Both the position numbers and the translations under genes were made by a program. Below the pieces are notes generated by a model that saw nothing but the letters and a program-made list of their open reading frames with translations, was not told where the DNA came from and did no database searches. Positions 1 to 32,694 of a stretch of 64,000 nucleotides of DNA are shown here, one piece after another. Position 1 is the first letter of the stretch; each line of letters opens with the position of its first letter. The stretch is from a virus. The DNA is taken from positions 1 through 64,000 of IMG/VR virus record IMGVR_UViG_3300032304_002285; one strand, written 5' to 3'.

Positions 1-575
1 GGACAAGTGTAAGAAGCATCCGGAGTATGCGGCGAAGAGGAAGCCCGTTGCTGATTGTCACGATTGCCGGGCTATTTGGAATCAGAAGATGATTAAGGAT
101 TTCACTGATGACATTAATGATTTGATTGCTCCGATCATGACTGTTGAATTGGTTGAGGTAACGGAGAAGGCGTTTTTCTTTTGTGTGATGCTTGACAAGG
201 CAATTGGCCAGTATGCTGTACGGGAGAATGTGGTTATTAAGGATGAGTTTGTTGACATGGTAACGAAGAAGGGGAAGAAGATTTTGGGTGTTGATATTTG
301 TTTCAACAATACCAAAACTCGGTTTTGGTATTACCCGTGAGTGATTCGGGTAAAGTAATAAATGGTTGGGCATGTCCAAAGGAGTTCTTGGACTTCCGGG
401 TTTATGATGAGTATGAAGATTGGATCTTTGTTGATTACCGCTATGTTCCTCTAATTCCCAATCCTAGAATGAGGAAGAGAAGAACAAGAGTTCCTGCTGG
501 TTGTATAGTGATTGTGTTGAAGGAAAGGGAATTGGCATAGGGTAATCCATTAAGTAAAAACTCTTAGATAGGTTA

Positions 576-610
576 TAGTATCCCGTCTTAAAAGAGGAGA
601 CGGGATACTA
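576..610 (+). promoter_or_regulatory. RBS-occluding hairpin upstream of the radical SAM gene
   Basis: TAGTATCCCGTCT (576-588) pairs perfectly with AGACGGGATACTA (598-610), covering part of the RBS and the A of the ATG. Confidence 0.7.
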
Positions 611-1437: not shown

Positions 1438-1448
1438 ATTAATGAAGG

Positions 1449-2878
1449 GTGGAAATGAATAAGATAATGAATGGGGAATTTAAGGTTTGGGTTCGTGGTC
1501 CATTAATGGATAGTGATCTTATTCTTTCCACCAATGTTGGGTTTTTACTTTTCCCGAATGCAGAGGCTAAGAATTGTCAACGGATTGAGTTTGAGATTAA
1601 GCGTGGGGAGTGCGAAGGAAGGGTTGTTTCATTCTTTCCATTGAACACTGTTTTAGTGATTGAATGGTGAAGCTTTGTGACGTTATGCCTAATATTTCCA
1701 ATGGGGGTGCTGAAATTCTTTCTTATACAGTAATAAAGAGGCATGTATGGGAAAATCCAGAGATGTATGTTTTATTCACATTGGATAATCCTCCTGGTAC
1801 ATATTCAGCCTCGTTGGTTTTCCCTGAAGATACAATTTATATTTTTGAAGTGAGGGAAGAATGAAGAAGTGGGAAGAGCTTATGCCAACAATGAGTATGA
1901 TACCTCATGGAAGGCATATTATTCGTTTATTGGGCAGTAGGAAAGACGGTTACGCATGGCACTTTCGTTATATTGTTGTACGCCGGGATGGATCTAGAGA
2001 AGTAAGAGAAGTAGAGTTCCCACAAGAAACCATTTTGGTGTTTAGAGAAAATGAAATTAAGTGATTATTTTGAATATTTTCCGAAGTGTGATGGAGAAGT
2101 AGGTTTAATTGAATGTGAGTATGATGAAGTATTCCATGTGAATTGTTTAGTGGTTTACTATGAAAGTTCTGATTGTCAGTTTAAAAGAAGATATCACATT
2201 CCATTTCCTCTTGATGTCATTTATTGTTGTAAAGGGATGATTGATGAAGCCAAGTGATATTCGTCCTTTGTGGAATGATATTGATGATCATTCTATAATA
2301 CTTTGCAATGTAGACGAGGATCAAGAATATCCGCAAAGCAGGCTTGAAGTTTGTTTTGAGAATAGGAAGAATATTTTAATTGGTGATCCTCCTAGGAGAT
2401 TTCGGTGTACAAGATTTCCTTTTGGATCATTATATACTTTGGAAGCGAACAATGAGACCAAGTGATATCCATCCTTTTTGGAGACATTTAGATTCATACA
2501 AGATTTTGGATTATGGATTGAATGATGAACAAGACTTTCCCGATACGAGATTATGGTTTTTCATTGGTAGTGAGAATGAGTGGAAGAAATATGGTTTTTA
2601 TCAGGAATATAAATGGGTAGCAATACCTTGTGGTTGTATATTCCCGGTGATGGGGAGGGAGTATGGCTTGGCCAAGGGAGAATCTAAAGAGGCTTGAGTG
2701 TTTAGAGGTTCATGGGGCTATTGTTTATGAATTGAGTATGGTTACACAGGTTATGGTAGATTTTGGTCCTGGAAGTTTTTCTTTATACGAGGGTGGGAGG
2801 ATACGGGGTATAGTTAATTTCCCTTTAGGATCTATACTTGTTTTTAAGGAAGTTGAGGTTGTTTTTTTGGAAAAGTAA
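1449..2878 (+). CDS. Block of 7 coupled mini-genes of the beta-rich 'FP-x-G/N-hydrophobic strand' family
   Basis: ORFs at 1449, 1664, 1861, ~2051, ~2244, ~2450, 2663 (66-82 aa); stop/start overlaps; C-termini FFPLNTVLVIE, FPEDTIYIFE, FPQETILVFRE, FPLDVIY, FPFGSLYTLE, IPCGCIFPV, FPLGSILVFKE. Confidence 0.75.
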
Positions 2879-12863: not shown

Positions 12864-12873
12864 ATTGAAAACA

Positions 12874-12910
12874 GAAGCCCAAAGGGAATAAAATCTCTTT
12901 GGGCTTTTTT
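12874..12910 (+). terminator. Terminator ending the tRNA cluster
   Basis: AGCCCAAAGGGA...TCTCTTTGGGCT followed by Ts. Confidence 0.8.
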
Positions 12911-12955
12911 ATGTTCAAGATTTTGGGGTATAATAGGTAGAAACAGGTAGGAAGT

Positions 12956-14762
12956 ATGTATATTGCTGGTCCTTCAATTCCTCTTAAGATGGAGCAGAAT
13001 TTATCTAGTGTGGAAGTTCCGTGTCGTTACTCGAATTGTAAGGGTACGGCTTTAATGATTCAAGGTTCTAATAAACAGTGGCGGATTTATTGTCCGTATT
13101 GTTTTTTAGGAGACGTTTATAGAAACGGGAAGATTGGGTATAGGAACTTAGATTTGGGAAAGGTACTGGGTCAATGGTATGAACCTTCTACTCATCTTTC
13201 TTTGGTAATAGCATATGATGAAAAAGGAATTGATCATGAGGGTTGCCAATGAGCTTCAAGAGAATGAAGATACCATGTAGGACCAAGAATTGCAGTGGTG
13301 CTTATTTGAAGAGAGTTGGCAAAAGGAAGAGGCTTTTTGATAAGGGATTCAATCGTCCATTTTGGCATTTAAGTTGTCAAAATTGTGGTTATGACTGGTC
13401 AACGGCAAGATCTCTAAGGAAGGTATTGGGTGAATGGTATGATGGTTTGTACTGTAGGACATTGGATTTTGTAATTATATTGAGTGAGTATGAGATATGA
13501 AGATTCCTTGTACTTATCTTGGGTGTTCGGGGGTTGTTCAGGTTTGGAAGGATAGTTGTTGGAGAGTTTATTGTCCTAAGTGTAAGTATCATGAGTTGCC
13601 GATAAAGTCTCGTAGTGAAGTTTTAAAAAGATGGTATAAATTTACTAAGGTATTACCGATAATAGTTTTATCAGAGACAGAAGCGGAGATTAAATCATGA
13701 CGGTTAAGAGATCGAAGAAGCAGTATGGTGTTGCTCCTGGTTGTGTTCCTGTTCCTAGGGTTAAGGTTCATAAGTTTAAGACTTCATCCAAGCCAAGATT
13801 TTGTCCTGTTTGCCAGGGTAGTCGTAAGCTTGGAGTAGAGCTTGTTGGGATCTTTGACTGTACGACTCCTTGTTTTGCTTGTTTGTCTTGGGATTAAAAT
13901 GAGTGAGAATATCAAGTATGAGTTTTTGGGAATAGTTCTTTGCCAGATGGATGGGTGTAAGGGGAAGGCGTATGTTTCGTTAGAATTAGAAACAAGGTAT
14001 CTTACTATTTACTGTCCATCTTGTGGTTGGTGTGGTCTTCCATGGCCAGAGAGGGCGGGGTTTGCGATTGTGTTCAAGGAGAGAGTAGTTGAGTGATTCC
14101 AGACAGAGGTTTATTGATTCATTGGAGACGGTTACTTTCTTTCCTTGCTGGAGGGATAATTGTGGTCCTGCAAGGCTTCTGAGGTTTAAGGATGGGGCTT
14201 GGACCATTGCGTGTCCTTATTGTGGTTTACAGCCCTTCTTTAAGTCTCCGACAAGAAAGGAAGCCTATTCTTCTTGGTTTCAGGATATCAAGGAAATTGT
14301 TGTTTACGATGAAGTCGAAATCTGACACATATTTTTCATGGGAAATTCCTTGTGGGGATAAGGAGTGTGGGTCAACTGCTTTCTTGGTCTATTGGTTTCA
14401 CAATGGCATTCACAAATGGAAATGTTATTGCATGGAGTGTAGGAGGGCAACTTTGGAGTATAATGAGTCTAAGGATGCATTGGACATATTTTTTAATGGC
14501 TATTGGGGTGATCTAAGGAACAGAGTGGTGGTTTATGACCTCCGGGGCGAAGCTCCTATCGTTTTATGAGGTTCCTTGCCCCAAGTGTGATAAAGAAGCG
14601 AGATTAGAGGCATGGGATTGTTCTGCTGGGATTGTATGGAGAGTTCATTGTTGGCATTGCTATTTTATTGGTAATAATAGTTCTAGTGCTAAATCTGCCT
14701 TGTGGTTTGCTTGTAAGCTTCCTGAGGATTGCATAATGATTTATGGGCAAGAAGAGATATGA
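12956..14762 (+). CDS. Block of ~7 Lar-like Cys4 zinc-ribbon mini-genes (plus one other Cys-rich ORF at 13697)
   Basis: (K/E)(I/V)PC-x2-4-C ... (Y/R)C-x2-C ... W(Y/F) ... hydrophobic strand then D/E-E; coupled stops and starts. Confidence 0.75.
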
Positions 14763-15206
14763 TTTTTACTCACAACGAGACACGGGACTTTAATCTGAGT
14801 AATAGTGGATTAATAGTGGACGATTTCATTAAGAATCGTTCTTATGGGAGGAAGTTAGTTTTAAGGATAAAGATTGGTCGATATATAGATGAAATAGATA
14901 AGATTCCTTTGGCTTGGGTTATGGTTTTCATTGGGAAGGGGAAATATTCAGATAAATATTTATCTGTTTTCCCTATGTATTCCATATTGTTTATTAAGGA
15001 GAGATTGATTGAAAGTTGAACAAATAGATCCAAGTAGCCGTTATGCTTCAAATGATCTTTTGTATTTGAAGTGTGTGGACAAGGGCAATGGGTTTATGAA
15101 TTTGTTTGTTCAGTTTATGGTTCCAGGGGGAAGGGTTAAAAAGCATAAAAGGATTTGTGTTCCTAGTCAGGTTATTATCACTTCGAGTGAGGAAATTATT
15201 CAATGA
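14758..15206 (+). CDS. Two FP-family mini-genes
   Basis: C-termini VFPMYSILFIKE and VPSQVIITSSEE. Confidence 0.6.
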
Positions 15207-15409
15207 AGGTTGGTGATTTTTATACACTTCATGATGATGCTGATTGTTTGATTATGCAGGTTGATATTCAGGGTCAAGAGTCTTATCCGGAGTGGGGATT
15301 TTTTAGGATTTATTTTATCTATTAAAAGCCTGATTTAACGACAAGTTTTGATGATATTGTTGTTCCTAAAAATAAGGTATTTGTAATCAATGAAAGCCCC
15401 TTGTCTTAA
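15203..15409 (+). pseudogene. FP-family mini-gene interrupted by an in-frame TAA at 15323-15325
   Basis: MKVGDFYTLHDDADCLIMQVDIQGQESYPEWGFFRIYFIY*KPDLTTSFDDIVVPKNKVFVINESPLS; the family C-terminal motif lies after the stop. Confidence 0.65.
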
Positions 15410-18400
15410 ATGCGGAATAATGGTGGATTTAATTCGCCAAAGTAAATGGTATGTTGATATTGATTGTCCTAAGTGTAAAAAAATACAGCGCAATTTTTCA
15501 TTAAAGAGCGCGCTTGAGTTGATTCATATGTTTCAAGATTTTAAGGGAAATGGGAATCTTATTGTTGTATATGATGAGATTGGGTTATGAAAGCTCCTTG
15601 CTTTAAGTGTGGAATGATGGTGGATTTAATTCGCCAAGGTAAATTGTATGTTGATGTTGGTTGTCCTAAGTGTAAAATCATCTATCGTGGTTATTCGTTA
15701 AAATATTTGATTCGGTTGATTCATAAATATCAAGAGAGTCAGGGGAGTGGAAATCTTATTGTAGTGTATGATGAGGTTTGTTTATGAAGATTCCTTGTGG
15801 ATTTTGTGATGGGTTAGTTGATGTTGTTGATGTTGATTGTGGGGTATATGTCCAGATTCGTTGTTTTAATTGTGGTGTGACGGTTAACGGGGATAATGTG
15901 GATGAGGCTTTCAATTTCTTTTATTATCATAAGCCTGATGGCTGGAACTCGACAGTAATTGTGTATAATGAGGTAGGCTTGTGAAGGTTCATAAGGTTTC
16001 AAGAACTTTTAATCCTCCTATGTCAATGAGGTATCCTTGTTGCTATAATGGTTGTAGTGGGGTAGCAACACTACATTTCCGATGGGATGAAGTTTATATT
16101 TATTGTGATGATTGTCTTCTTAATAGTCCGTGGTTTGATTTAGATAAAATAGAGAAAGCATTTGGATGGTATTACGATGAAGATAGCAGTTTTAGGGACA
16201 TTATAATCCTATATGAAAATCCCTTGTAGTTTATCAAGATGTTCTGATCTTGCGGAATTGGATAAAGGGCATCTTATTGATTCATGTTGTTATTATTGTT
16301 GTTGTTCTGGATGCCATCAATTAGGGTATCCTTGTGATGATTGGGAATCGGCTTTAAAGAGTTGGTATAGGAATTCGGACATTTCTCTTATTATTTTTTA
16401 TGGGGAAAGTCCCATATGAAAATAGAGTTAGATAAGAGCAAGCCTTATTCTTCAATGTATAGAATTCCTTGTAATAAGGATTCATGTGTTGGTTCTGCTT
16501 TTTTTCGTTGGCATGGGGAGAAGGTTTTTATTTGGTGTGTTTCTTGTCTGGAACTCGGCTTTTCTTTTAATACGATAGAAGAGGCTCTTGCCGGTTGGTA
16601 TATACATGGTTTGTCTATGGTGATTGTTTTAGAAGATAAAGAGATATGACTGAAAGGATTGAGGATGAAAGTTCCTTGTTGGAACCAATTTTGTAAAGAG
16701 TTGATTGAGATAGAGATGGACAATGGTTGGGCGTCTTGTGCTTGTGATAAGTGTGGGGTTCGGTGTTTGGGCAGAGATTCGGTCAAGAAGATATTGGGGG
16801 ATTGGTATGCGAATACTCACTTCGATTTGGTTGTTGTTTGGGAAGATGTTCAAGAAAAAGGATTACAGGGTTAAGATTCCTTGTTGGAATGCTAATTGTA
16901 CAACGGGAGCTAATCTGACATTCAAGGGAGGATGGTATACTTGTAGTTGTTTGAATTGCAAAAGTGGGTGTGGGAGTTCAGAGGGTGTTAAGGTTTTCGA
17001 GAGATGGTATTTATATTCAGAAGTGAATCTGGTGATAGTTCTGGAAGAAAAGACGATCTATAGATTTTGGAAGTAATTGATGATTGAAAGATTGATAATA
17101 CCATGCAGGGACCATGGCTGTAATAGAATTGCTTATTTGAATAGGATAAATGAGCGTTGGTATCATATTGGTTGTACTTGTGGTCAATCTGGTTGGACGG
17201 AAACTAACAATACAAACAAGGCGATAGAAGAAGCTCTTATTGCATGGTATTTGGAGGATGGTCTAGGTTTGGTGATAGTGACTGAAGAGTGTCCTCTGTG
17301 AAAGATTTTGAGATTAGAATTCCATGTAGGAGTACGAATTGTAGCAAGTTAGCTGTTGCAAGAAAATCTAATAGTAATTGGGGCAGGGTGGCTTGTGGTT
17401 GTGGGCAGAATTGTTGGATGGAGACTCCTAAAAAAGACACGCAATTTTTGGATTCTATTATTTCTCAATGGTATTTCGAGGACGATCCTAATCTGGTTAT
17501 CATCATTGAAGAAAATCCATTATGAAAAAAGGTTACTTAAAAATTCCTTGTTGGGATAGGGATTGTAAAGAGTTGGCAATTTTATCAGAAGGGGGTAGGT
17601 GGTTTAGGGTAAGATGTAGTGCATGTAATTCAGCAAGTCTTATGAGTGAAAAACGGAATGAGTCATTGGCAGATTGGTACTTGGATTATGCTTCCCACAG
17701 TCATGTGATTATTTTAGATTGTGTTGTCATCACTGAAGAAAATCCATTATGATAAAATATCTAAAAATACCTTGTATGAATAATAGTTGTCGAGGATTGG
17801 CTATTTTATCAATTGGGGATGAGTGGCGCAGGGTACATTGTCCCACATGTTATTCTGAAAGTGTTTTAAGTAGAAGTTTTAAAGACACATTAGAATATTG
17901 GTACCAAGATCGCAATTTTTATATTAAAAAGTCAACGATAACCAACATTATCATCATTGAAGAAAAGCCGTTATGAAAATCCCGGAAATGAAAGTTCCTT
18001 GTTGGAATTTATATTGTAGTGAGCTAGCAGTCCTAGAGACAAAGGGTAATTATTACCAAATATATTGCCCTGGTTGTGAAACCGTGAGTCTTGCAAGTAG
18101 AAATGTATATGAGTCATTGGATAATTGGTATGAGGTTTTTAACGACAAGAGTAGAAATAAAACCCATGTCATAATCCTTGAAGAAAAGCCTTTATGAGGG
18201 AATCGGAATGAAAATTCCTTGTTGGAATAAAAATTGTAATGGGTTGGGTGTTTTAATGTATGAAGATGGTTGGTTTAGGGTAAATTGTTCTACTTGTAAT
18301 TCGGGAAGTAATGTTTGTCGAAATTGGGACAAATCATTAGAAGATTGGTATTGTGATTATGATTTCCAAAAGGCATCCTTGGAGAAGATTATCATCATTC

Positions 18401-18913
18401 AAGAAAAGCCATTATGAATCTTTATAAAATACCATGTGTACATGAGAGGTGTCCTGGTCCTGCTTACTTCAAGCGGGAATTGAAGAATTGGTATTATTGT
18501 AAGTGCTATGTATGTGGACACGAATCCATACACTATCAGAATAAGCTTAGGGCTATGACTAATTGGTATAATGAATCAGTTTTTTGGGATTCTAATAGAG
18601 AGAAGAAGACATATCTGGTGATTATCATAGAAGAAACAGAGTTATGAAACCATTACAGGATTCGAGGATTCCTTGTTTTCAGAAAGAGTGTCATGGATTG
18701 GCGAGGATAACTCCTGTAGGAGGTGGGAATGAATGTGGGATTATTTGTAGTGGTTGCTATATTTGTGGGCATCAAACATCAAAAGACTTGATTTATTTAT
18801 TAGATTCTTGGTACAGGGGAGAGACATACAGCAATCTCAATAAAGCTCCGGAATACTTCAGTATTTTTCCAGAGATGACCATGATCCTTATTCTTGAAGA
18901 GGCTGAGAATTAA
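15390..18913 (+). CDS. Uninterrupted array of 16 Lar-like zinc-ribbon mini-genes
   Basis: Starts near 15390, 15587, 15784, 15981, 16213, 16416, 16659, 16846, 17077, 17289, 17522, 17749, 17973, 18194, 18414, 18644; all carry PC..C / C..C and a hydrophobic-EE tail, most also W-Y; ATGA overlaps. Confidence 0.85.
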
Positions 18914-18919
18914 AAGAGG

Positions 18920-19648
18920 ATGTTTCCTGTGAATCTTGGAATATGTGCCATCGTAAAGGACGAAAGAATTTCTTATGCATCGGAATGGGTTCAATGGTAT
19001 AGAGAGTTAGGGGTAAAGAGGTTTTTCATTTACAACAACGGTGTAGAGCCTTTTGTGACTGGTCCTGACATTGTAGAGACAGCTTGGCCGGGGAAGGCTG
19101 TACAATTGGCGGCTTATGATCATTGTCTTGCCTATAATCAAGGAATGGATTTCATAGCTTTCATTGATCTTGATGAGTTCATTGTTGGTCCATTGATTTC
19201 CAAGCTGGAGCATGTGGAGAATGGGTTGGCTTTGAATTGGAGGATGTATGGAAGTTCGGGATTGAATTATAACCATCAGGGAAGGCAATTAGGGGTATTC
19301 CGTAAGTATGCTCCACCTACAGCCTGTGAGACGGTAAAAACCATTGTAAGGGTAAACAATGCCATTCAGGCTTTGAGTCCTCATCATTTCTTGTTTAGGA
19401 ATGGGAAGGGGGTTCAGAGTTTGAATGGTGCTATTGTTTCTAGTCCTATTAATCCGATAAGTTCTTGGCCAGAGGTTTGGATAAATCATTATATATTGAG
19501 ATCAAAGGCTGATTGGTTTTACAAGGCTTACAGGGGAAGAGTATCTGTTAAGGATACCTGTTATGATGTGTCTACAATTGAGGGGATAGATAAGGTTTGT
19601 ACGGAAACCGATGAAGTAGTGTATTGGCGGGGTATAATGGGGGAATGA
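18920..19648 (+). CDS. Glycosyltransferase (GT2/GT92-like)
   Basis: 'LGICAIVKDE...EWVQWY..LGV..FFIYNN...Q..AY..C...FIAFIDLDEF...LNWRMYGSSG...VKTIV...INHY'. Confidence 0.82.
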   Translation: MFPVNLGICAIVKDERISYASEWVQWYRELGVKRFFIYNNGVEPFVTGPDIVETAWPGKAVQLAAYDHCLAYNQGMDFIAFIDLDEFIVGPLISKLEHVENGLALNWRMYGSSGLNYNHQGRQLGVFRKYAPPTACETVKTIVRVNNAIQALSPHHFLFRNGKGVQSLNGAIVSSPINPISSWPEVWINHYILRSKADWFYKAYRGRVSVKDTCYDVSTIEGIDKVCTETDEVVYWRGIMGE

Positions 19649-19714
19649 TATTTTTTCAATAAAAGGATCTATTTATAGGAAATAAGAGAGTTTAATCGGG
19701 CGGGAGGGTGTAGG

Positions 19715-20539
19715 ATGAAGACGGTTGCTTCTGAGTTGTTGAAGATTGCCAAGAGCTTGGTTGCAGCCCGTCCTATTCCCATTGATAAGAAAGCGGTTAA
19801 GGAATTCGTTGATGATATTCTTCTTTCTTCTGTTTTTAGATGGGCATCACAGCAAAATCCAAACAAGAAGCTTGGTAGACAACCAATTTGCAAGTCTGTT
19901 TTCTCCTTAAAGAATCCAAGAGGAGAACATGTAAGTTTGGATGTAATAGTACAGACAAGTCCACACAGCAATGATTCAATATTTACCGGAGGATATTTTT
20001 CTAGAGTCAAATCCCCTGGAAGGTGGAAGATTGTTTTGGGAATCAATGAAAACCTATATCCATCTTCGATTCTTGAAAATCCGAATAAGCTTGGGGCTAT
20101 ACTTTATTCTGCTATGATTCATGAGTTGACTCATGCTTTGGATGTAATTCCAGATGGTGTTTCCCGAATGGATTATCTCAAGAAACAAAATTCCCCTGGA
20201 GTCATTCCAACAGGTGATGACATTGATTTTAAAAAATATGTCAACAATCCGGTTGAGGTTCGGGCTCATATGCAACAAGTGGTTGACGAGGTTCTAACAA
20301 GGGTTAGCAATCCCTATTATTTGGCTTTCTTAAAGCGGACCTACCCGAATGACATGAAAGACAAAATGATTGGGAAAAATGCTATGACAAATCTTTCTCC
20401 TAAATGGTGTTTCCTAATCGAAAATGGAATCAGTAAGGAAAATCGGAAGAAGATTTTGCAAGCTGTTTATAGAGCATTGGAAGATAGTGGTTTGTTTGAC
20501 AGGACAAAAGAAGTGAATGATGGTGCTGTTTTAGAATAA
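19715..20539 (+). CDS. Tagged HExxH (zincin-like) protein, paralogous to the N-domain of 38202
   Basis: N-terminus MKTVASELLKIAKSLVAARPIPIDK; MIHELTHALD; YVNNPVEVRAHMQ. Confidence 0.7.
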   Translation: MKTVASELLKIAKSLVAARPIPIDKKAVKEFVDDILLSSVFRWASQQNPNKKLGRQPICKSVFSLKNPRGEHVSLDVIVQTSPHSNDSIFTGGYFSRVKSPGRWKIVLGINENLYPSSILENPNKLGAILYSAMIHELTHALDVIPDGVSRMDYLKKQNSPGVIPTGDDIDFKKYVNNPVEVRAHMQQVVDEVLTRVSNPYYLAFLKRTYPNDMKDKMIGKNAMTNLSPKWCFLIENGISKENRKKILQAVYRALEDSGLFDRTKEVNDGAVLE

Positions 20540-20552
20540 TGATAGATATGGA

Positions 20553-23500
20553 TTGAGAATGTTTAAGCACAAACACAAGCCGTGTTCTGTTCCTTGTTAT
20601 TGTGGTTCTAGGTTATCTGATCTTCGGCAATTGAAGAATGGCGTTATCAAGATAAAATGCAGGAATTGCAAGCATGCTCTTTATTTTGGAAAGAATGCTT
20701 ATCAATTGGCTGATTGGCTAGTTAAAGAGAATGATAATTCGGGGATATTTATTGCAAGTGAGAAAGAGATTTGAGGTTGATAATGGGATTGTATACTGAG
20801 TTTAGGCAAGGCGATGAAGATCCTGTTTATCTAGCGGTGAAGATTCTTCATCATTTAATGGGATATCCGGAGTTCATTGTTATCTATGGAGAAGAAGTTC
20901 AATTGGAATATTGATTATGTTTGTTAGAGATGTAAAGCCAGATCGTAAAGAAGCCGATTCAGAATTGAAGAATATTCACATTGATGAGTTTACTCATGAG
21001 GATGGAAGAATATCTCAATTTCTGACGGCTTATTATGTTGATAGGGATGGTGTATTTGCTTATTCATTTCCTGAAAATTCTATTTTGGTATATGGTGGCG
21101 TAGAGTGGTAAAGTCTCTTTTTAAATTTGATGAAGTATATGTGAAGTTAATGGTAGACCTGATTCATAAAGAAGAGATGGATAAGATTCATTCTCACATA
21201 AAGGAATATTTGGATAGAGATTACAATCAAGGTGAGGCTATAAAATGGATGGGGATTTGGGTATATAAAGAGAGAGAATTGAATGAAAAGTAAGGGTTAC
21301 AAATTTCCTTGTAGTTGTGGGAGATTGTGTAGGGTTTTTAAGAATCATACGAATTGGTATTTTGTTTGTGGTTGTGGTGTTGGATTTCATCTTTTTAGGG
21401 ACTTGAAGCGATTGTTGGGATTTTGTCATTTCATTGATGTTATTCTTATCTTAGATGAAATTGAGGATATATGAAGTTCTATAATTTACCTTGTCGTTGT
21501 GGGGGAATTATAAGGATTCATGGGGATCACATGTATTGGATTACGGATTGCAGAGGTTGTCAGAAGACTGTTTCTTTGTATTGGACATTGGAAAATGTTT
21601 TGAAGTATTGTGATTTCAAAGACGTGATAGTTATCATTGATTGAGTATGAAAAAGAAAAAATATCCGGATAGATTGCCTTGTGTGAATCCAGATTGCCAC
21701 GGGAATAATCTTTTGCTTAGGCGTGGTCAATCTTTTAGTAGAAGATATTGGTTAATACGTTGTGAATCTTGTAATAAGAACATTGCTTGGGATAGAGGGT
21801 TAATATCATTTTTGAATTATTATTATCAGAAGTCTCCCGAATTGATTATTATTCTTGGAGAGAAGAATGAAGAATAACTATCCAAAAAGCATTCCATGTG
21901 TTGGGGTTGGTTGTAATCGGAGTGCCACTTTGGATAGGCGTGGTTACAAGTCCCAGAATAGAAGGTATTGGTTATTACGGTGTGAGCCATGTCACGCGAT
22001 TATTGTTTGGCATAGGGGTTTGAAATTGTTATTGGCTGATTATTACAAGAAGTCTCCCGAATTGATTATTATTCTTGGAGAGAAAAATGTTTAAGCATCC
22101 GAAGATGATTCCTTGTTTGATCTGTGATTGTGGTCTTAATGTGAAGAGGGAAGGCAGGAGTTGGAAATTTAGTTGTGATAAGTGTTGTAGTGTTAGTTTT
22201 TCTAAACAAAATTTGTTTAAGGCTATTAGGGGTTTGTACATTAATCCCTGGAACGAGTCAGATTATCCGAATCATGGTTTAAAAGGGAAGATTTTGATAA
22301 TAAGTGATAAGTTAATTAGGGGTAGGACTATATGAACAATAAAATAAACATTGGGAAGGTTCCATGTAATTGTTGTGATGGGATTATGAATTTAAACAGG
22401 ACAAGGGCTATCGGTAGGTTTAGACTCTGGTATTTCAAGTGTAGCAAGTGTGAAGCGTATTATTTTAAAAAAGGAAAGATATCAGAGGCATTGTCTAGTT
22501 GGTCTCAATTGACTTCTTTTTGCAATAATCAGATTATTTTTGTATTGAAAGAAATGGCGATAAAGGAATAGGAAATGAATTTTCCTAAGAGTATTCCTTG
22601 TTGTCAAGGAAGATGCAGCGGGGTAGCATTTGTTGAGTATGATCGTAATTTCTCTATGAATGTGTGGATTTTTACTTGTAGAAGTTGTCATAGTAAACAC
22701 ATAGATACTAGAAGTTTTAAGAGTGGTGTTGAGACTTGGTATAAATGGGCTGATCTTAGAGGCTTGGTTATTGTATTGAAGGAAAAGAAATTGAAATGAA
22801 ATTAATTGGTATTCCTTGTTCGAGGTGTGGCAGGATTGCTGAGGTTTCTTCTTATTATTCTGTTGTTGATGAATATGATCATTTTGATGCACATTGTAAG
22901 GCTTGTGGGAAGCGTGGGAATGTTTTTGGAGAAAGAAGCATTGAGAGTTCACTGAAGAATTTTTACATAATAGATGAATTAGGTTTTATTATTTTTTATT
23001 GGGAGATTGAAGAATGAAAATAAGCTCCATGGCTCTTCCTTCTCATTGTAAGGGTCATAGTGCAATACTTTCAAGGCATCTTCTTACTGAAGTTTCCTAT
23101 TTTAGGTTTGTATGTTCTCATTGTGGGAGACGAGAATCTATAGCTTCTCTAGAATTATCGTTAGATTATTTTTATTTTGAGGCTGAATTAGAGGTTATCA
23201 TTATTTTAAAAGAGTATCCGAGGGAATTACCTGTTGATGGATGGTGTAATAAAAGAGCTTAAGCGGATAAGCATTCCTTGTACGATCAAGGACTGTATGG
23301 GTCCTGCTTGGCTTGTAGAGACCTATTATAAGGACGGGGAGCATTCTCCAAATAAAGACAGATTGTATTGGCGTTGTGAGTGTAGCATGTGTGGAGTAAT
23401 GGAATTCAATCAGAAGGACATTAATACTGCCTTGAAGCGGTGGTTTAGGAAGAGATTGGATTTTATCATAGTGATTGGAGAAAAGAAATGGGAGACGGGT

Positions 23501-23709
23501 GGATAAAAAGGAAGCTGAGCCGGGTATCATGTTGGTGTGGTGGCGATGCTTTTCTTTACGAGGTTGCTGAAAAACCTCAATGGATGATCAAATGTGTTAA
23601 GTGTTCACAGACTTCCTATGCAAGATATAGGAAGGTTGTTTTTAGACGTTGGTTCAGGAATTCAGATTGTTCAATAGTTTATGTTATTGAAGAGAGAATA
23701 TTGAAATGA
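20553..23709 (+). CDS. Block of ~12 Lar-like zinc-ribbon mini-genes with a few unrelated small ORFs
   Basis: Starts near 20553, 21283, 21471, 21641, 21867, 22087, 22332, 22575, 22796, 23014, 23234, 23488; 21641 and 21867 are recent duplicates (both end YxKSPELIIILGEKN). Confidence 0.78.
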
Positions 23710-23775
23710 GTACTCAAGAGTGTTTTCGGGTTCGGATTTTTATGGGGTTATATATTGTTTGAGTGAAGGTAGCAT

Positions 23776-26700
23776 ATGAGAAATAAGATTAATTACCCTT
23801 TGAAGATGAAAGATGTAACGAGTAAGCATATTCCAAAACAATCGGACATATTGAGTTGGATAATCATTGAGAGGGTTGGTCATTCCATTATTGTTTTGGA
23901 ATACAGGACGAAGCTTGGGTATAAAAAGTTTTTGCAATTAAGATTTAACTATGGGCAGATAATGGTTGTGAAAGAAGTAGCAGATGAAAGACATTAGGCA
24001 TTTAGGGCTGAAAATAAGTGATTTTGATAAAAGAGAAAAGAAGACTTATCAAGTGCTTCGGTATAGCTGGGACTTAGTTCATCCTATTTTTAAAAAACAA
24101 ACAGAAAAATCATTGGTTGTTTTTTATCATTGGCCAGAAGTAGGAATGATGGAGAGATACTTATTCCCTCCTGAGGATTGCGTTGTTGTCGTTGGAGAAG
24201 TTTTCTTTAATGAAAAGTAAAAATTATTTTGATCTTAGGGGTTGTGGATTGACAATAAAGAGCTTTGATTTTGCTTATGATGTTGGGACGGTGTTAGGGG
24301 GTTTAGAGGTGGTTGGGGTTAATCTTAAGCTTTATCCAACCCAAGTTGTCTGTTTTTATTGTTGTAATGAACGTGGCGATGTTGCACCTTGGTCTATTGG
24401 GGCTCCTGGTGGATTGATTTTTGTTCATTCAGGTATTGAGATTTCTGAATGAAAAATGATGGTGATTTTATTGGATTGTGGGCTGAAGGGTCAAGCTATT
24501 GTGATCTTACTGGTTTAGGGTTTACTACAAAGAATTTTGATTTTTACAAAAGCATGTTGATAATGGAGGCAGAAGTTGTAGGAATGAAATTCAAGGCTTC
24601 TTCTCCGAATAGGCATTCTGTTTCTCTTTATTATAGGAATAGATACGGTTGCATAGTATCGACTCCTATTTCTATTCCTAAGGGTTTGGTGTTTATCTCA
24701 AAGACAGAAGTGGGGATTTAAGAGAATGAAGAAATTAACATTGGGTGACTTCAAGGGTGTTGATTGTTACTTTGGTCCTTATTATGAGGAGGACAGGGTA
24801 ACAAGAGTACGGGTTGAGGAGAGTGGGGCTGTTTCTTTTTATAAGGTTTTTTGTTATGATCCGAATAAAGCAGCATTTGAGCTTATTGTTCCTTCTGGTC
24901 TTGTTTATTTTATTGGGGAAGAGGAGATAAATGAAGGCGAGAAGTCAAAGAAAGAGAAGACGCTAGATCGGTGTATGAAGCAGGCTAGAAGTGAATTGGA
25001 TTGTTATGGTTATAGGGAGCATGATGATCCAGCCAGGATGAATTTACTTGAGATAGTGGAGAGATTAACTCCTTTGGGAAGGTGTGTGCTCTGTGCCATT
25101 CCTGGGGAGAAGATTCAGATTGAGGTAAGGAAGGGATGGGCAAAGATTTTGAGTGCAGAGGTTCTTATGGCCAAGATAAAGAGGACTGACGTTAAGGAAG
25201 CTTTCATTAAGTTGGCAGAGTCGATGGTATAATAGGGCTGGAACGGCAATGGCGATGAAAAAATCCAGAGGTGATTTACACATATGGGATTTTCTGATTA
25301 AGAAAAGTGACACTCCGAATTGGAAGGTTGATCTTACTCGTTGTTGGGTAACGGAGTGTAAGGGAGAGAAGTTTCATGTATTGCAATTGGCAGACAAGAT
25401 AGGGAAGCAGAACAAGTCTTGGGTTGGTGATTACTGGGAAGAAGTGTTTTTTCCATTTGGTTACATTTTAGTGATAGAGGTTGAAGTCATTGAGTAAGCA
25501 CTTGCATTTATCTGATTTTTTAATGCCAGTATCGAAAGTGTGGCTTACTCCTTCCAAAGATTGGGAAATAAGAAGAGTAAGAATTCATGAGAGGAAAAAG
25601 TTGGATGGTGAGAGTGTCAATGTTTTTTATCTTGTGGGAGATCATGGGAAATGTTGGCAAAGGGATTTTCCGTTGCATTCAATTCTCATAGTGGATGTAG
25701 TTTTTTATGAGTGAGTATTGTGAATTATCTATTGAAGAGATTGAGTTTAATCCTCCTTTGGACATTATGAAGTTGATTTGTGGTTATCCATGGTCTATTC
25801 CGATTGACATAATTCGTCTAGAGGAAAGAACGTATGCAGGTAAAGTTAGTTTGGTGATTTGTAGTCTTGGTAAGGGTGGTGATTATTTGGTTCTAAAAGT
25901 AGCATCTTATGGATCGGTATTTGTCTATGACGAACATGATGAAAAGTGAAGTTTTTATTGATCTTGGTTGTTTAATTCCCATAAGTTATTTCAATCAAAT
26001 AGAAAGAGATACAGCCAGGATTAATAAGATCAGGTTAAATGAGACCAAGGATGGCGATCTTCTTATGATTTTTGGTATTATGAAGGGTGATAATTATGAG
26101 AGTACTATGTGTTTAGGTTCAAGTCCTCAGGGTGTTTTGTACACTTACGGGGAGCAGGGGTTTGAATAAGAAGGGATTAAATAAAGACCATGATTTTTTG
26201 ATTAGTCAGGATCGGTCTATGGTCATGGCTGGTTTAGTGATGATTTGTGAAAACAAAGATGATACTATTGAAAATTGTATTCGTTGTTCTCACTCTAAAG
26301 AACATAAGATCACTAAAGATTCTGGTTGTAATTTTTGTGTTATTTGTATGAATGCGATTGGTCCTGCTTTTTGTCTTCCTGTTAATTTGATTGTTATTAA
26401 GGAAGAGTTTACAGACTATTAGGAGTGATGGAATTTCTACGGTTTTTGCTTCATTTTCCAGAAAACACTGTTTGTGTGACCAGGGGTAGTTTGTTTTGAA
26501 AATTCTTACCAAAAAGTCTGAAATTTTTCGAGAATTTATAGTAGACATAGATAGGGCTGATTTTACTGATCGTAAACATATCAGCCTTGTTACGTTTGGT
26601 ATTAAGAAAATTACTTCGGTAACAGTTAAAGACTATGAAGATGGCAAGTTATTGTTGATTGCATTTGGGAAGAGGAAGCAGCGCAAGACTAATTACTATG

Positions 26701-27003
26701 TACTTTCTGATGAATTTCCCAAAGACACTGTTTATGTGATAAAGGGTAGATTGTTTTGAAATTTCGTGATTTAAATTTGAAGAGACACACAAATTGAAGA
26801 GTTTTAATTTAAGAGAAGTTTATCCGGGTGCAAAGAACGAAAAGGTATTTCCTGTTGTCGTTGTTCATTCTAGTTATTCTCATAATCAAATGCATCAATT
26901 TGTTTATTGGTTTAGGGTTGGGGATAACCAACGGATGATGATGGAAGAGTTTCCTCTTGGGGAAATCCTAGTAAAGAATGAAAGGCTTTTAGATGAACTA
27001 TAG
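23776..27003 (+). CDS. Block of ~11 FP-family mini-genes
   Basis: C-termini e.g. FPPEDCVVVVGE, APGGLIFVHS, IPKGLVFISK, FFPFGYILVIE, FPLHSILIVD, FPKDTVYVIKG, FPLGEILVKNE. Confidence 0.7.
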
Positions 27004-27268
27004 AGATTTGTTGGTTAAGTATATGGCGCATGTTGGAGAGGTTGAGGGTGTTGATTTTTTAGGTTCTTCTTATTTTACGCAATCTAAATGTTTGAATAAG
27101 GAAGAGCAGCAGGCTCTTTTGTCGCTAGAGAAAGAGGCTGGTGAGTATTTGGATAGATTGCACAATAAGAGTGTGTTAATAGACTCTGCTACGTTGACTG
27201 GCGTATGGAATAACACTAGGCGTGGTCCCGATGTTTATTCTGTTTCGGTTAATGTCAGGAGGTAGAAA

Positions 27269-28222
27269 TTGGTCAAAAATCGGAATGATATGTTGATAGT
27301 CAAGGTACCTTGTGGATTTTGTGGGAACACGGCTGTTTTGACTAAACATGTGGAAGCTTTAGTAGACACTGAGGGTTATTCTTTTCTTGTTGAGTGTGGG
27401 TCTTGTAGATCGAAGTTATTTGGGTTTAATATCAAAAGATTGCTAACTCGTTTTTATAATTTTGGTAAGTACGGCAAGAGTGGCAAGATTAATTTCATAA
27501 TTGTTTGGAATGAGAATTGAGGGAGAGATGGCAGGATTCATGGTTTTACCTTGTACCATTCCGGGTTGTGGCGGGATGAGCCACGTTTATTCTGTTGATA
27601 AGACATATGAGAAGGCCAATCTTGGTAAGTATTTTTGTCGTTGTTCTCGTTGTCTTTTTGTTTCATCTTTGGCTTTTGATATTCCTGGGTTGGTGAAAAA
27701 GTTATTGAAGGATGGAGAGTCTGATCTAGTTTTTGTTTTTGAGGGTGAAATATTTAACACGGGATTTCAGGAATGAGAATCCCTTGTTGTACTCCGGGAT
27801 GTTTGGGGGCTGCTTATGTCTATAATTCTTTGTACATAGGATTCGGTTGTGGTTGTCCTGTTTGTCATAAAGAGACGGGATGGCATGGATTAAAAGAAGA
27901 TATGCTTAATGCTTGGTATAAAGAGGTGGAACTAGGGCTGATCATTTGTTTTGAAGAGCAGGGTTGGTGGAAGACAGGGAGAAGGTGGGATGGGGCGGTA
28001 TAATGGATCTAGGAGGGTCATGAGGGTATGAAATCGGTATGGACACTACCTTGCTGCGATTCGGGTTGTAAGGGTCCTGCTTTTATGCTTAGGAATGACA
28101 ATGGTTTCATGTGTAGGTGTTCTCGCTGTAGCTTGATGACTTATGGGCATGAGAGTTGGAGAGAAGCGGCTAATAGCTGGGTAAGTGCTTTGGGTTGGGG
28201 TTGTATTTTCATTTTGGAGTAG
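27269..28222 (+). CDS. Four Lar-like zinc-ribbon mini-genes
   Basis: VPCGFC, LPCTIPGC, IPCCTPGC, LPCCDSGC plus a second CxxC and hydrophobic-E tail. Confidence 0.75.
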
Positions 28223-28271
28223 GGAGACTGGGATAGACGAGATTTCTTAGTAATGAAAGAGAATGATGTAA

Positions 28272-30086
28272 ATGGAAATGCCTTGTGTTGATTGTGAGGG
28301 TCTTTTTGTTCAAGATTTTTTAGAATCGAGTACTTTACCTTTTGTAGGTAAGAGTGAGAGAGAATATTCGGTTACGGGTGTTGGTGTTGATGAAGAGTCC
28401 CTTATAGAAAAGGGTTGTCATGTTTTGATGGTTCTATACTTTGATCCAAAAGTTGGCCGGGTTAGTTGGCTTAGGTTGCCTTTCCCTGAGGGCTCCTTGT
28501 TTGTGATCAAGGGAATTGCCTGTCTTTAGGTGATATTTAAAGTTAAGGCTTTGTGTATGGATGATAAGGCGATATTTAAGCCTGAGGGTTTGAAGATTGG
28601 GGATTTTGTTAATCAGGGGTTCTTACCTGCTGATCAATATTTATGGTTAGAACATTCAGATGATATCTTCGGTGTTTACGTTTGTGAGAGATGGTATTTA
28701 AGCGGTAAAGGTGTTAATCAAACAGAACTTTACTTTTTTAGAAAATACACAAATAGAATTGAGAGTTTGAGAATTCATTTTCCAGTGGGAATGATTTTAG
28801 TGGTAGGGGAGACTTGATTATGTTATTTAAACCTAATGGTGTTCGGCTTAAGGATGTATTTTTAAACAGGGCAAGCGAAGACGAAAGTAATGAATATGAT
28901 AATCTTATTACGAATATTACTATTGATGGTGATTGGGTAGTAACAGGGAAGAAGTGTCAATATTTGACTGCTTTTTATTTTGACAAGAAACACAGGAGGT
29001 TTGAGCATATCTCTAGATTCTTTCCAAGTGATACCATTTTGACTGTAATGGAGCATTGAGAGTGTCAGTCGCAGAATTTGAACTTGGCAGAGAAGAAATG
29101 AAGGTAAGGGATTTTACTGATCCTGCTAATTTTTCCTGTTTTTGTGCATCTGAGAGAGAATATGCTGTTTTTTGTGTTTCGGTTGACGATAAGGTTCTTG
29201 CCGATAAAGGATCAAATGCAATAACAATACGTTTTTTTGATAAGAGACTTGGGCGTGTTAGTTTTGTGAGGATGTCATTCCCGGCTGGTTTGATATATTT
29301 CATAAAAGAGAGTAGGGAGTTAGAGGGAATACCAAATTGAAATCTGAAGATCTTAGAGTTAAAGATTTCACAGAGCCATATGGATTGTATGAGCTATTTC
29401 CGTATGAAGGGGAATATTTCATAGAAAATATTACCTTGGATGATGAGCCATTTAGGAAAGAAATGTGGAATCTTTTGGTTGTTAATTTTTATGATATAAG
29501 AGAGAAGAAACCCGGATCATTTGGCATAACATTCCCTGATGGTTTGATATTTTATATCCAGGAGGTTTATGATCTTTAGACCATTAGGTTTGATTTTTGG
29601 TGATATCGTTAATGATCCTGATTGTGTATTTTATGGGATTCACCCATGGTTGACTGTTACAGATGTGTCTTATTCGGATTTGGGATGGGAACGAGACGGG
29701 TACGCCTTCACAGAGGTTGCTGTTGTTTGTTACAATGAAGTTCAAGAGCGTTTTATAACAGTGGTGGTTGACCAGCCTGAAGGCAGTGTTTATGTTGTGA
29801 AGTGCAGGGAGTTGGTTCAGGAATGAAGACGATGATTCTTGATGGTAATTATTTTGCCAATCGCCTTGATAGTGGAGATCATATTGTCAGTGTTCTTTTC
29901 CGTTGTCATGAGAAGATTGAAGGGGAGTGGGTTTCATCATTCTTTGTGAGGATTGTCACGAAATGGCAAACTCAATCAACCATTATTCATTATGTTCCGC
30001 AGGGTCTAATTGAGTTAGTGGAAGAGAGGCGGGTAAAGAAGACTTGTTATGGGTTTATTGTTGAGGATGAAGGAGTGGGGGTATAA
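28272..30086 (+). CDS. Seven FP-family mini-genes
   Basis: C-termini FPEGSLFVIK, FPVGMILVVGE, FPSDTILTVME, FPAGLIYFIKE, FPDGLIFYIQE, QPEGSVYVVK, VPQGLIELVEE. Confidence 0.75.
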
Positions 30087-32694
30087 TGAATCGCATATTG
30101 CTTAGAATGCCTTGTTATTCGCATTGTTGTTCAGGTGAGGCGGTAATGAGGGAATTCCCAAAGGATCTGGGATATTCTATAACTTGTCGGATTAAGACTT
30201 GTCAAATTGGGAAATTAATTTTACCAAATAAGACATTTAAGGAAGCGGCTAGGATGTTTTTGAGGAAGAGAGAGATAATTTTGATCAGGGAAGAGCATCC
30301 GATTAAGAAGAGGAGGTTGAAATGATGCCATGGTGGTTAGCTCATCTTATAGGGGACTATTTGATTCAGAATGATTGGATGGCAACAAGGAAGAACAAGC
30401 AGACGATTCCTTGTTTGATTCATGGGATTACCTATTGTTTGCCTTTTCTGTTGTGTAATATGATTTGGTGGCAAATTGTTTTGATTGGGGTAGAGCATTT
30501 CTTACAGGATAGACTTGGGTTTGCCAGATGGTTTATGAGACATACGGATCATGAGTTATTTGCTACTGGGGCATTATCGCCTTGGTCTATAGTTGTGACT
30601 GACAATGTGATTCACTTGGTTTTCATTTGGCTTGTGACTCTTTTGTGAAGACGAGAGAGATAAAACTACCTTGTCCTAAATGCTCAAGTGTTTTGACGTT
30701 GTATTTGTTTCCTGATTACGTTGGCTATTTTGCTGAATGTCTTTCGTGTAGGTGTAAAAAACTAGGTGATGGGTATTTCCCTCTTCATACCAAGAGGAAT
30801 ATGGTAAAGAATTCGATTGTTTCATGGTTTTCTTACAATCCGTCTCCTAATTGTTTTATTGTCTTGAGTGAAAAGAGGCTCAAGTGAAGAAAAGGATTCC
30901 TTGTAAGACGCCGGATTGCCGTGGTCCTGCCTATTTGGTTAGCACCGAGAGATTGTTTAATCAAATGTGTGATTATGATTGTTATTGTAGTCTTTGTGGG
31001 GCAGGGTCAACTGAATTTGGTGCTGCTTGCTGGAGTATGAATACTGCTTTTGATTCTTTCTATAAATGGAGTGATGGTCCATCCAGTATTATCATCATGA
31101 AGGAGACTCCTCTTTGAATGAAAGAAGGAAGATAGGGATTCCTTGTCCGAGGTGTTCTGGTATTCTTCATTTGGTTTTATTAGAGCATTCGGATGGATAT
31201 TTCCCTGATTGTAAGGGGTGTGAGTTTAATGATGGAAATTTTTATTCTATTGTTTCATATGGGAAAAAGATAAAACACGCTTTGGCGCATTGGAATAAGC
31301 ATTATCCAATTGGAGATATGGTTGTTGTTATTGAAGAGAGGACGGTGGATCAATGAAAAAGATTTACTCAGCAGTTGCTACTGTTCACGTTCTTCTTGGA
31401 GAGGAAGAGCTACGGGAAGCCATTCAGCAGGCTAACTTGGCAATTATTGGGTCAGAGCATTGTAATTGCTATAATGCTGATGGGAAGATTGTTCCTAGGG
31501 AGATAGATAAGGAGACTGAGGAGAAATTGCTTAATACTCAGTGTAGGATGCGGTGTGGGTGGAATGTGTCTGTTGAGTATGACGTGGATGAAAACGGTAA
31601 TATTGTGAATATTAGATTGAAGAAGCCATGAAGGCTGAGATAGGGAATTTGGTGGTTCCTTGTCCTCATTGTGGTAAGAAAGCGACTTTGAGTATCGGTA
31701 TTTATACTCATTGGATTTGTGTTTGTTTATCTTGTCGTAAGTTTTTGCCATCTGTTTTGTGTAAGGAGCAGTGTGCATATGATAGGGATAGCTTAGAATT
31801 CATTTTACATCATTGGTTTTTGGATAGAGCTATGCCCATTTATGTATTGGAGGAGATTGCAGAATGAATATTGAAAAGGTAAAGGAATTAATCCCTCTTG
31901 CTTGTGATACCCCTTGGTATGATGAATCTCCTGATTTCAAGGCTGGTTCAACTGGAGTTGTAGACAAAACAAGGAAGGGTTATGTACTTGGTCCTTCCTT
32001 GCCTCATCTTCCGAGGAAAAATGACATTAGGTTGATTTTGCAGTTGGTTAATTCGGTGAGTGAGATTGTAGCCGTGGTTGAGGCGGCTAAGAAGGTTGTG
32101 GATAAGGTAGATGATTTAGATGCTTTAGCTGAATTAGAGAAAGCACTTTATGATTTGGAGGTGAAACAATGAAGAAGACGTGTAAATGGCCAGAGAAGCC
32201 AGGATTCTACGGGTATATTAATTATCGGGAATGGTTTTATGGTCCGTATGATACGGCTAAGGGGTTAGAGGATTGCTTGCTGGAAGAGCAGGAGAAGGAT
32301 TATTGGTTTGATTATGATGGATTGACAGTTCGGTATGTTCCAAAAAAACCAGCAGATCTTGCTGAGTTCATGAAGACTCCGAATATTAAATATGGGCATA
32401 GGTTTATTCTTGTTTTGGAAGAGGTGGCTTATAATGAAGCTACTGGACGATAAGTTTAAGATTAGTAGGACTTATGTTTTCCCTTGTTTTTGTGAAAAGG
32501 GATTGTGTGAGCTTGCCAGAATGAATGATAAAATGTGGTATATGGAGTGTGATCATTGTCATGTGTTTTCTAATTATGGCAGACCAAAGAAGAAGGAAGC
32601 CATAGTTTCGTGGTATAATATGGGTTACAATTCCAAGAGGAAGTTGATTGATTTCATAATTGTATTGGAAGAGGAGATGATTCTTTTGTATTAA
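30086..32694 (+). CDS. Six Lar-like zinc-ribbon mini-genes interspersed with other small ORFs
   Basis: Starts near 30086, 30627, 30884, 31114, 31628, 32434 carry the same signature. Confidence 0.7.
30322..30648 (+). CDS. DUF3307-like membrane protein
   Basis: 'LAHLIGDYLIQNDWMA..K...HGITY...EHFLQD...DNVIHL'. Confidence 0.75.
   Translation: MMPWWLAHLIGDYLIQNDWMATRKNKQTIPCLIHGITYCLPFLLCNMIWWQIVLIGVEHFLQDRLGFARWFMRHTDHELFATGALSPWSIVVTDNVIHLVFIWLVTLL

Follow-up and report, generated by a model that had tools for sequence, protein, structure and literature searches.

We analysed a stretch of viral DNA of 64,000 nucleotides (hereafter the window), which is the first 64 kb of the 180,758-bp record IMGVR_UViG_3300032304_002285 in IMG/VR. 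Positions 12956-32694 of the window hold an array of 78 genes on the plus strand with a coding density of 97.7%. Forty-five of these genes encode mini-proteins of a single family, which by sequence comparison is a divergent sister group of the Lar restriction-alleviation family (Pfam PF14354), although its members do not belong to that family by Pfam criteria. They are interleaved with about 24 genes of a second, cysteine-free family (family 2), and one short C-terminal tail is common to both families. We tentatively favour the interpretation that the array encodes a library of early binders directed at the host or its defences, whose common tail serves for docking or assembly, and give it nearly an even chance. 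A preliminary description of the array, made from the sequence without database searches, had recognised the Lar-like genes, but had missed the interleaved cysteine-free genes and about nine further mini-genes upstream that carry the same tail. Also new are the position of the tail outside the predicted folds, the presence of similar arrays on four other contigs, and the old age of the paralogs. Genes are designated below by their start position.

A family of 45 Lar-like mini-proteins

The 45 genes encode proteins of 57-100 amino acids that align as one family (alignment A1) with the pattern (K/R)(I/V)PC-x(0-4)-C ... C-x(1-3)-C ... W(Y/F) ... hydrophobic run-E. The proline is conserved in 43 of the 45 sequences, and the four cysteines in 44, 45, 45 and 45. 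A helix with Leu-x2-Trp-Tyr is also kept: its tryptophan is found in 31 of 43 sequences, with Phe in 7 others, and its tyrosine in 26 of 43, again with Phe in 7. Furthermore, a Gly-x-Ala-x-Leu strand is conserved, three tail positions are nearly always Ile or Val, and the tail glutamate is present in 37 of 43 sequences. According to a rough count with regular expressions, the first cysteine knuckle is C-x4-C in about half of the members and C-x2-C in about a quarter. A hidden Markov model (HMM) of A1 matched exactly these 45 open reading frames (ORFs) in the 181-kb record, with E-values from 1e-8 to 1e-23. All were located in the array, and nothing outside the array was matched. The preliminary estimate of about 45 such genes was therefore accurate.

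PF14354 was the only recurrent Pfam family among the matches of these proteins, and was matched by five of the 45 members at E ≤ 1. The best score, 20.2 bits (E = 1.1e-4; gene 27269), remained under the gathering cut-off of 28.6 bits, and so did the scores of all other members. In contrast, profile-profile comparison with hhalign aligned A1 with ten canonical Lar proteins over 61 columns (probability 96.9%, E = 1.5e-10), and with RalR/Lar of Escherichia coli (b1348) over 49 columns (probability 95.1%, E = 3.3e-8). A search with the A1 profile among 1.84 billion representative sequences yielded 260 matches at E ≤ 0.001. By our own count, the best 150 of these 260 matches included 37 proteins of the window itself and about 22 metagenomic mini-proteins with the same tail. 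Most of the remaining ones carried the canonical Lar signature PCPFCG ... C..CG ... WN.R; seven of these were scanned against PF14354 and scored 63-104 bits each. Hence, the earlier suggestion of Lar-like zinc ribbons is borne out by profile comparison, by the retrieval of PF14354 proteins and by the predicted structure described below. The relationship is one of homology at the profile level and not of membership in the Pfam family.

The family shares with Lar/RalR, which is encoded by the Rac prophage of E. coli, Pro-Cys in the first knuckle, C-x2-C in the second and a subsequent helix with conserved Ala/Leu and Trp, as well as a similar length (about 60 amino acids) and a phage origin; PF14354 also includes tandem multi-domain forms. 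It differs in its first knuckle, which is mostly C-x4-C instead of C-x2-C, in its W(Y/F) without a conserved arginine in place of WNxR, in its additional hydrophobic-Glu tail, and in the presence of 45 separate genes in one probable operon. Lar is typically present in one or a few copies per genome.

Other searches returned little. A sequence search of the PDB with A1 gave generic zinc ribbons alone (E of at least 0.016), and a pattern search of IMG/VR with sub-block A4 gave 24 matches with no relative among them. Word-seeded homologue searches with A2 (the alignment of family 2) and A3 recovered essentially the proteins of the window alone. A weak PF14354 match at 153956-154078 of the record was an HNH-type protein and not a Lar protein.

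A second family and a common C-terminal tail

The approximately 24 genes of family 2 lack cysteines and follow the pattern 'L.v.DF ... FP.G.(I/L)(I/V/F)(V/I)..E' (alignment A2). They had no match in Pfam. When A1 and A2 were compared with hhalign, only the last 15 columns aligned, which correspond to the tail. This tail has four hydrophobic residues, then one or two that vary, and a glutamate that is followed by 3-5 further residues. It is present in both families and in the approximately nine upstream mini-proteins, which are not recovered by the HMM of family 2 and have only the tail in common with it. Within the first 33 kb of the record, a simple pattern for the tail matched 62 small genes, compared to three in the remaining 148 kb. 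These results imply that the tail, rather than the zinc ribbon, is the common denominator of the block.

Three natural fusions from metagenomes (P0001, P0066 and P0072) combine two or three mini-domains in one ORF, either Lar-like with Lar-like or cysteine-free with Lar-like. Their tails are kept as internal linkers, and hence a free C-terminus is not required.

The same mixture of tailed Lar-like and cysteine-free mini-proteins was found on four other metagenomic contigs:

L001: 1.7 kb
L010: 6.4 kb, GC content 48%, 32 consecutive mini-genes
L011: 1.9 kb
L096: 8.2 kb, GC content 43%

Most mini-proteins on these contigs are cysteine-free and end in 'G.(I/V)G(V/I/L)..E...', with an occasional tailed Lar-like protein, and their genes show 4-nt overlaps. 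Several contigs of SRR12594517 also carry tailed members of the family within runs of small genes.

In addition, an amphipathic N-terminal tag of about 15 amino acids, …(I/V)A.EL(I/L/V)K(L/I)A(K/R).L…, heads otherwise unrelated proteins in the window (genes 19715, 33593, 34027, 34773, 8575 and 7758, the tag being internal in 7758). Downstream of the array on L096 lie genes (4098, 5557, 6116 and 6455) whose products open with 'MNRIAVAQELVKLAREL...', the same N-terminal tag. The synteny of the array with these tagged genes is thus conserved in a distant relative.

Predicted structures

AlphaFold2 (AF2) was used to model both families. The model of the Lar-like gene 17973 had a mean predicted local distance difference test (pLDDT) score of 85, with strands at residues 6-9, 18-24 and 27-32 and a helix at 45-54. 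The Lar-like proteins are accordingly modelled as a fold of three strands, two cysteine knuckles and one helix, a predicted zinc ribbon. Its structural neighbours in the ESM-Atlas include a RalR cluster, with template modelling (TM) scores of 0.56/0.60. In a VIA search, the best solved folds were zinc ribbons of the Elf1 type (Z 4.5-5.2, 56-59 residues aligned), and the nearest solved folds also include dsRBD-like beta-beta-beta-alpha domains. The Elf1/ELOF1-type ribbons (PDB 9er2_O, 8rap_M, 6ir9_M) resemble the model in their three-stranded ribbon and helix, and the Pfam family Zn_ribbon_Elf1 is a secondary match of canonical Lar proteins. However, the Z scores are weak and typical of common arrangements, the sequences are unrelated, and a eukaryotic-type function is not implied.

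The model of family 2 (pLDDT 86) consists of N-terminal helices and a three-stranded sheet. A wide VIA search gave no fold match for it (best Z 3.6), and Foldseek found nothing in the PDB at E ≤ 0.001 for the models of either family. The tail was modelled as a coil outside the fold in both families (mean pLDDT 85-86).

The tail and translation initiation

Overlapping genes make up 58 of the 77 junctions in the array, of which 30 are 4-nt overlaps of the ATGA type, and the genes are therefore probably translationally coupled. Because most genes overlap, the codons of the tail also contain the ribosome-binding region of the next gene. The tail could accordingly be a by-product of coupling, composed of a U-rich codon run and a purine-rich Shine-Dalgarno (SD) sequence for the overlapping next gene, in which case the mini-proteins would be otherwise unrelated accessory proteins without a common partner. 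Anti-SD pairing is indeed stronger upstream of the array starts than at random positions, both in the window (-5.0 versus -3.0 kcal/mol) and on L010 (-5.35 versus -3.18). The tail glutamate usually lies 3-5 codons before the stop codon, and on L010 it is encoded by GAG in 18 of 22 cases. Together, the dominance of GAG and the above-random pairing make a dual role of the acidic residue plausible in L010.

In the window, however, the tail glutamates favour GAA over GAG (27 versus 20), opposite to the preference of the large genes (266 GAG versus 178 GAA), and only 23 of 69 tail glutamate codons are located 6-16 nt ahead of the next start. The genes at 17289-18647 keep two successive glutamates despite SD energies near -1. 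The tail is also retained by genes at the end of a run, where a gap of 32-73 nt follows and a coupled successor is missing. Moreover, the hydrophobic run is conserved as a class of residues rather than as nucleotides, with variation at codon positions 1 and 3, and overlapping small genes elsewhere in the genome lack the motif. We therefore regard a mere coupling by-product as unlikely.

Layout of the array

The array and its associated mini-genes are composed of the following features:

298..2878, plus strand: tailed cysteine-free mini-genes at the contig start (298, 1449, 1664, 1861, 2051, 2241, 2663)
6367-6570, plus strand: further tailed cysteine-free mini-gene
12956..14762, plus strand: Lar-like block 1, seven members (12956, 13243, 13497, 13899, 14089, 14312, 14535)
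13697-13897, plus strand: unrelated Cys-rich gene (66 amino acids) without tail, inside Lar-like block 1
14729..15206, plus strand: two cysteine-free tailed mini-genes of family 2
15390..18913, plus strand: Lar-like block 2, 16 consecutive members, including the closest pair 15390/15587
17289-18647, plus strand: sub-block of Lar-like block 2 with tails ...IIIEE(K/N)PL
18920-19648, plus strand: GT92/GT2-like glycosyltransferase embedded in the array
19715-20539, plus strand: protein of 274 amino acids with the genome's N-terminal amphipathic tag, embedded in the array
20559..23709, plus strand: Lar-like block 3, gene 20559 and then 11 members at 21283-23709, including the pair 21647/21867
20771 and 20911, plus strand: two cysteine-free tailed genes inside Lar-like block 3
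21105, plus strand: helical mini-gene product inside Lar-like block 3
23776..27003, plus strand: family 2 block, 12 cysteine-free mini-genes
24726-25232, plus strand: family 2 gene with an additional C-terminal domain
27269..28222, plus strand: Lar-like block 4, four members; gene 27269 is nearest to the Pfam Lar model (20.2 bits)
28272..30086, plus strand: family 2 block, seven cysteine-free tailed mini-genes
30086..32694, plus strand: mixed array end with Lar-like genes 30086, 30627, 30884, 31114, 31628 and 32392
30322-30648, plus strand: DUF3307-like hydrophobic protein of 108 amino acids (weak match), the only obvious membrane protein in the array
31353 and 31864, plus strand: two unassigned genes in the mixed end
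32169, plus strand: family 2 gene in the mixed end

The longest unbroken run of Lar-like genes is thus the 16 genes of block 2, in agreement with the preliminary description, which had reported up to 16 in a row with ATGA overlaps. The C-x2-C members in the mixed end are the most Lar-like of the family. Since tailed mini-genes already occur at the very start of the contig, the array system probably extends past the contig end.

A search for relatives of the 274-residue protein at 19715-20539 found none. The GT92-like gene was tried as a synteny anchor and rejected: at 80 metagenome loci with a homologue of it (29-38% identity, many from human gut), no Lar-like or family 2 ORF was present, so these loci are not relatives of the array. 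Two small Cys-rich proteins, at 13697-13897 (6 Cys) and 11420-11617 (5 Cys), fall outside the Lar-like family and lack the tail.

Transcription signals

Two signals directly precede the array:

12873-12908, plus strand: strong intrinsic-terminator hairpin with a 15-bp stem and a T run, directly upstream of the first array gene
12929-12934, plus strand: perfect -10 hexamer TATAAT of a putative promoter with a poor -35 element

The region 12873..12934 is the likely start of the transcription unit of the array. A scan found no comparably strong terminator inside the array, which is likely to form one long polycistronic unit. Downstream of the array are two terminators, each followed by an exact 24-nt repeat, TTGATATTTGGNNCTAATTGAAAG, at 33532-33555 and 33982-34005. 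This repeat did not occur in 100 shuffles and may be a phage-specific promoter that marks a transcription class distinct from the array.

Evolution of the paralogs

The Lar-like paralogs have a median pairwise protein identity of 24%. The preliminary description had singled out 15390/15587 and 21647/21867 (there given as 21641/21867) as recent duplicates. They are indeed the closest pairs, but they are not recent: 15390/15587, the closest, shares 67% protein identity, with 0.54 synonymous substitutions per site (dS) and a ratio of nonsynonymous to synonymous substitution rates (dN/dS) of 0.39, and 21647/21867 shares 55% identity, with a dS of 0.88 and a dN/dS of 0.34. The next four closest pairs have a dN/dS of 0.41-0.71. 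Hence, the family is under overall purifying selection, while its surfaces and charge are very variable.

Neighbouring genes resemble each other more than random pairs do (mean score 75.5 versus 50.4; 0 of 5000 permutations), a sign that the family expanded locally, by tandem duplication. A tree built from 64 domains was mostly unresolved, and the paralogs of the window did not form one exclusive clade in it. The metagenomic mini-protein M_P0052 groups with 21647/21867 (support 97/92), which places at least some of the diversification before the separation of this phage from others. The near-identical tandem copies of a gene accordion are absent among the 45 paralogs. With a median identity of 24% and a dS of at least 0.5, the paralogs are old, and the family appears stable and ancient. 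The earlier description of the array as accordion-like is consequently not supported, the more so as near-identity is lacking even between neighbours and another phage shares at least one paralog lineage.

Two contigs (L013 and L014) were 100% identical to the window at the DNA level. A 35.5-kb JGI contig has a colinear gene list and one comparable protein, which is identical, and looks like the same genotype. Each paralog forms a singleton cluster at 90% and was recorded in a single genotype. This narrow occurrence, together with the lack of annotated homologues, would be expected if the genes were decaying non-functional duplicates or chance ORFs. Yet the 45 copies keep nearly invariant cysteine and proline columns although their median identity is 24%, dN/dS lies below 1, the coding density reaches 97.7%, and other phage contigs carry homologues of the same architecture. 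This pattern of conservation effectively refutes such an origin, which we consider hardly credible.

Comparison with other gene expansions

T4-like and other large phages have hyperplastic or early regions, and poxviruses have gene accordions, in which densely packed small accessory genes, presumed to be host-directed, have overlapping stop and start codons and multiply by tandem duplication. In the array, by contrast, most genes fall into two or three families that are recognised by their common tail. The array also differs from gene accordions in the age of its duplicates (dS at least 0.5), as accordion copies are near-identical and recent.

Bacillus phage G has a lineage-specific expansion of about 35 copies of a zinc ribbon (Iyer et al. 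2021, PMC7824862). The preliminary statement that no comparable copy number had been reported therefore needs qualification, although the phage G ribbon is a different one. Both cases concern a small zinc-ribbon protein in dozens of copies in a jumbo phage, with a variable middle followed by a constant C-terminal motif, which in phage G is '…YWKENDRYL..(I/K)L(S/A)K' (L099/L102, 23.9-28.8 kb). However, homology was not detectable: an A3 profile gave four weak matches (E 0.0089-0.1) in the whole 497-kb genome. Moreover, the phage G proteins are longer (107-127 amino acids), their C-terminal motif is distinct and helical, and the stretch of phage G that was read shows neither an interleaved second family with the same tail nor packing with 4-nt overlaps. 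Our literature search found no paper that describes the family, its arrays, a Lar expansion at such a scale, or one tail on unrelated mini-folds.

Possible functions

Lar alleviates restriction by EcoKI (King & Murray 1995, as cited in PMC4041452). In the interpretation that we favour, the block would be one long early operon, and its products would form a library of small binders, each directed to a different host molecule. By analogy with Lar, the likeliest targets would be restriction or other defence proteins. The constant tail could be a shared beta-strand that docks every member onto one common partner. Alternatively, the tail might zip the members into multivalent assemblies, as a non-covalent equivalent of Lar polyproteins: a single polypeptide often contains 2-6 canonical Lar domains in tandem, which suggests that multivalency is a recurring theme. 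The isoelectric points (pI) of the Lar-like family range from 4.1 to 10.1, with pI > 8 in 20 and pI < 6 in 16 of the 45 members, and charge varies widely even within close sub-blocks. Such a spread is more readily explained by many different targets than by a uniform role as DNA mimic or DNA binder.

The charge distribution also bears on the possibility that the mini-proteins are directed at nucleic acids, as specific transcription factors, proteins that structure the nucleoid or the phage DNA, or nucleases, rather than as inhibitors of defence. Such a role has been proposed by Iyer et al. (2021, PMC7824862) for the zinc-ribbon expansion of phage G, and E. coli RalR has been reported to be a non-specific DNase toxin (PMC4041452). 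Furthermore, the Elf1-type ribbons and dsRBD-like domains nearest to the predicted structure contact nucleic acid, and the 20 members with pI > 8 are basic. The 16 acidic members and the varied charge within close sub-blocks do not fit this role, nor does family 2, which shares the tail and the putative operon and has no nucleic-acid-binding signature; the phage G family is, in addition, not detectably the same family. We consider a role of this kind rather improbable.

The mini-proteins might also be packaged into the virion and injected along with the DNA, as are the internal proteins of T4, with the tail as a signal for packaging or for a prohead protease that recognises a hydrophobic-x-Glu sequence. 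The (I/L/V)-x-E of the tail resembles the cleavage consensus of T4 gp21, and genes for larger proteins with the N-terminal tag adjoin the array, also in the distant relative L096. The block lies, however, beside genes for tRNAs, replication and nucleotide metabolism and has no structural genes in its vicinity, no more than 3-5 residues would be lost on cleavage, and the tail is internal in the fused forms. This makes packaging very unlikely.

Several results weigh against the binder library that we favour. The canonical A..(A)WNxR helix motif is not kept in the family: in canonical Lar proteins the W and N of WNxR are invariant and the R is at least 90% conserved, whereas in the array Asn is replaced by Tyr or Phe in 33 of 43 sequences and no Arg is conserved. 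There was no sign of positive selection, as gene-wide dN/dS was below 1 in the six closest pairs, with saturated sites. The anti-restriction role would be an extrapolation from one characterised relative with an unsettled mechanism, and the common docking partner of the tail is hypothetical. Part of the acidic signal of the tail may serve translation initiation, as codon use and SD pairing on L010 suggest. Finally, the putative early operon is suggested by the flanking terminator, the -10 box and the gene packing, while sigma-70-like promoters and terminators inside the array occur at chance level.

The binder library could be part of a wider scheme, which we regard as a rather improbable extension of it. 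An uncultivated clade of jumbo phages may use a peptide-tag logic, in which at least two unrelated mini-folds carry one C-terminal hydrophobic-Glu strand that brings them to a single hub or into mixed multivalent assemblies. These would constitute a combinatorial library of exchangeable binders against host or defence, and the adjoining larger proteins would carry a different, N-terminal amphipathic tag. If true, such tag-addressed effector libraries in phages would be undescribed so far.

Lar-type proteins are common in phages and their mechanism is poorly understood, so that 45 diversified copies in one genome offer contrasts of sequence and function on a constant scaffold. If the members inhibit different restriction or defence systems, the array could supply many new anti-defence proteins, and would exemplify how giant phages spend genome space on the breadth of counter-defence. 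The binding partner of a tail common to unrelated folds could reveal a shared hub for assembly, sorting, degradation or packaging. If the tail is mostly a signal for translational coupling, it would still show how operon architecture constrains protein C-termini.

Genome and surroundings

CheckV estimated the completeness of the record at 51%, which points to a jumbo phage with a genome of about 350 kb. A megablast of 20 kb, a tblastn of one mini-protein and a tblastn of the DnaB-like helicase gave no match among 50,697 deposited phages; by these searches, the phage belongs to a lineage without a sequenced cultured relative. The only relative that IMG/VR yielded through its helicase (47% identity) contained no member of the family, but it is only a 140-kb fragment that is 43% complete.

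The rest of the record encodes functions in replication, nucleotide metabolism and glycosyl transfer, including a NAD ligase, a DnaB-like helicase, a CobT-like protein, a CCA-adding enzyme and an exonuclease. No structural protein was found among the large ORFs scanned against Pfam and PHROGs, and the record is therefore probably the non-structural half of the genome.

A cluster of 14 tRNA genes precedes the array region and includes one tRNA with a CUA anticodon at 5701-5775. This tRNA is of the amber-suppressor type and was labelled Pyl by ARAGORN. TAG is the stop codon in three of the 45 Lar-like genes. Nearly all genes of the window lie on the plus strand, and its G+C content is about 38%. 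The GC skew is very strong and uniform across the window: it amounts to about +0.35 to +0.45 per 2 kb and dips near 38-40 kb.

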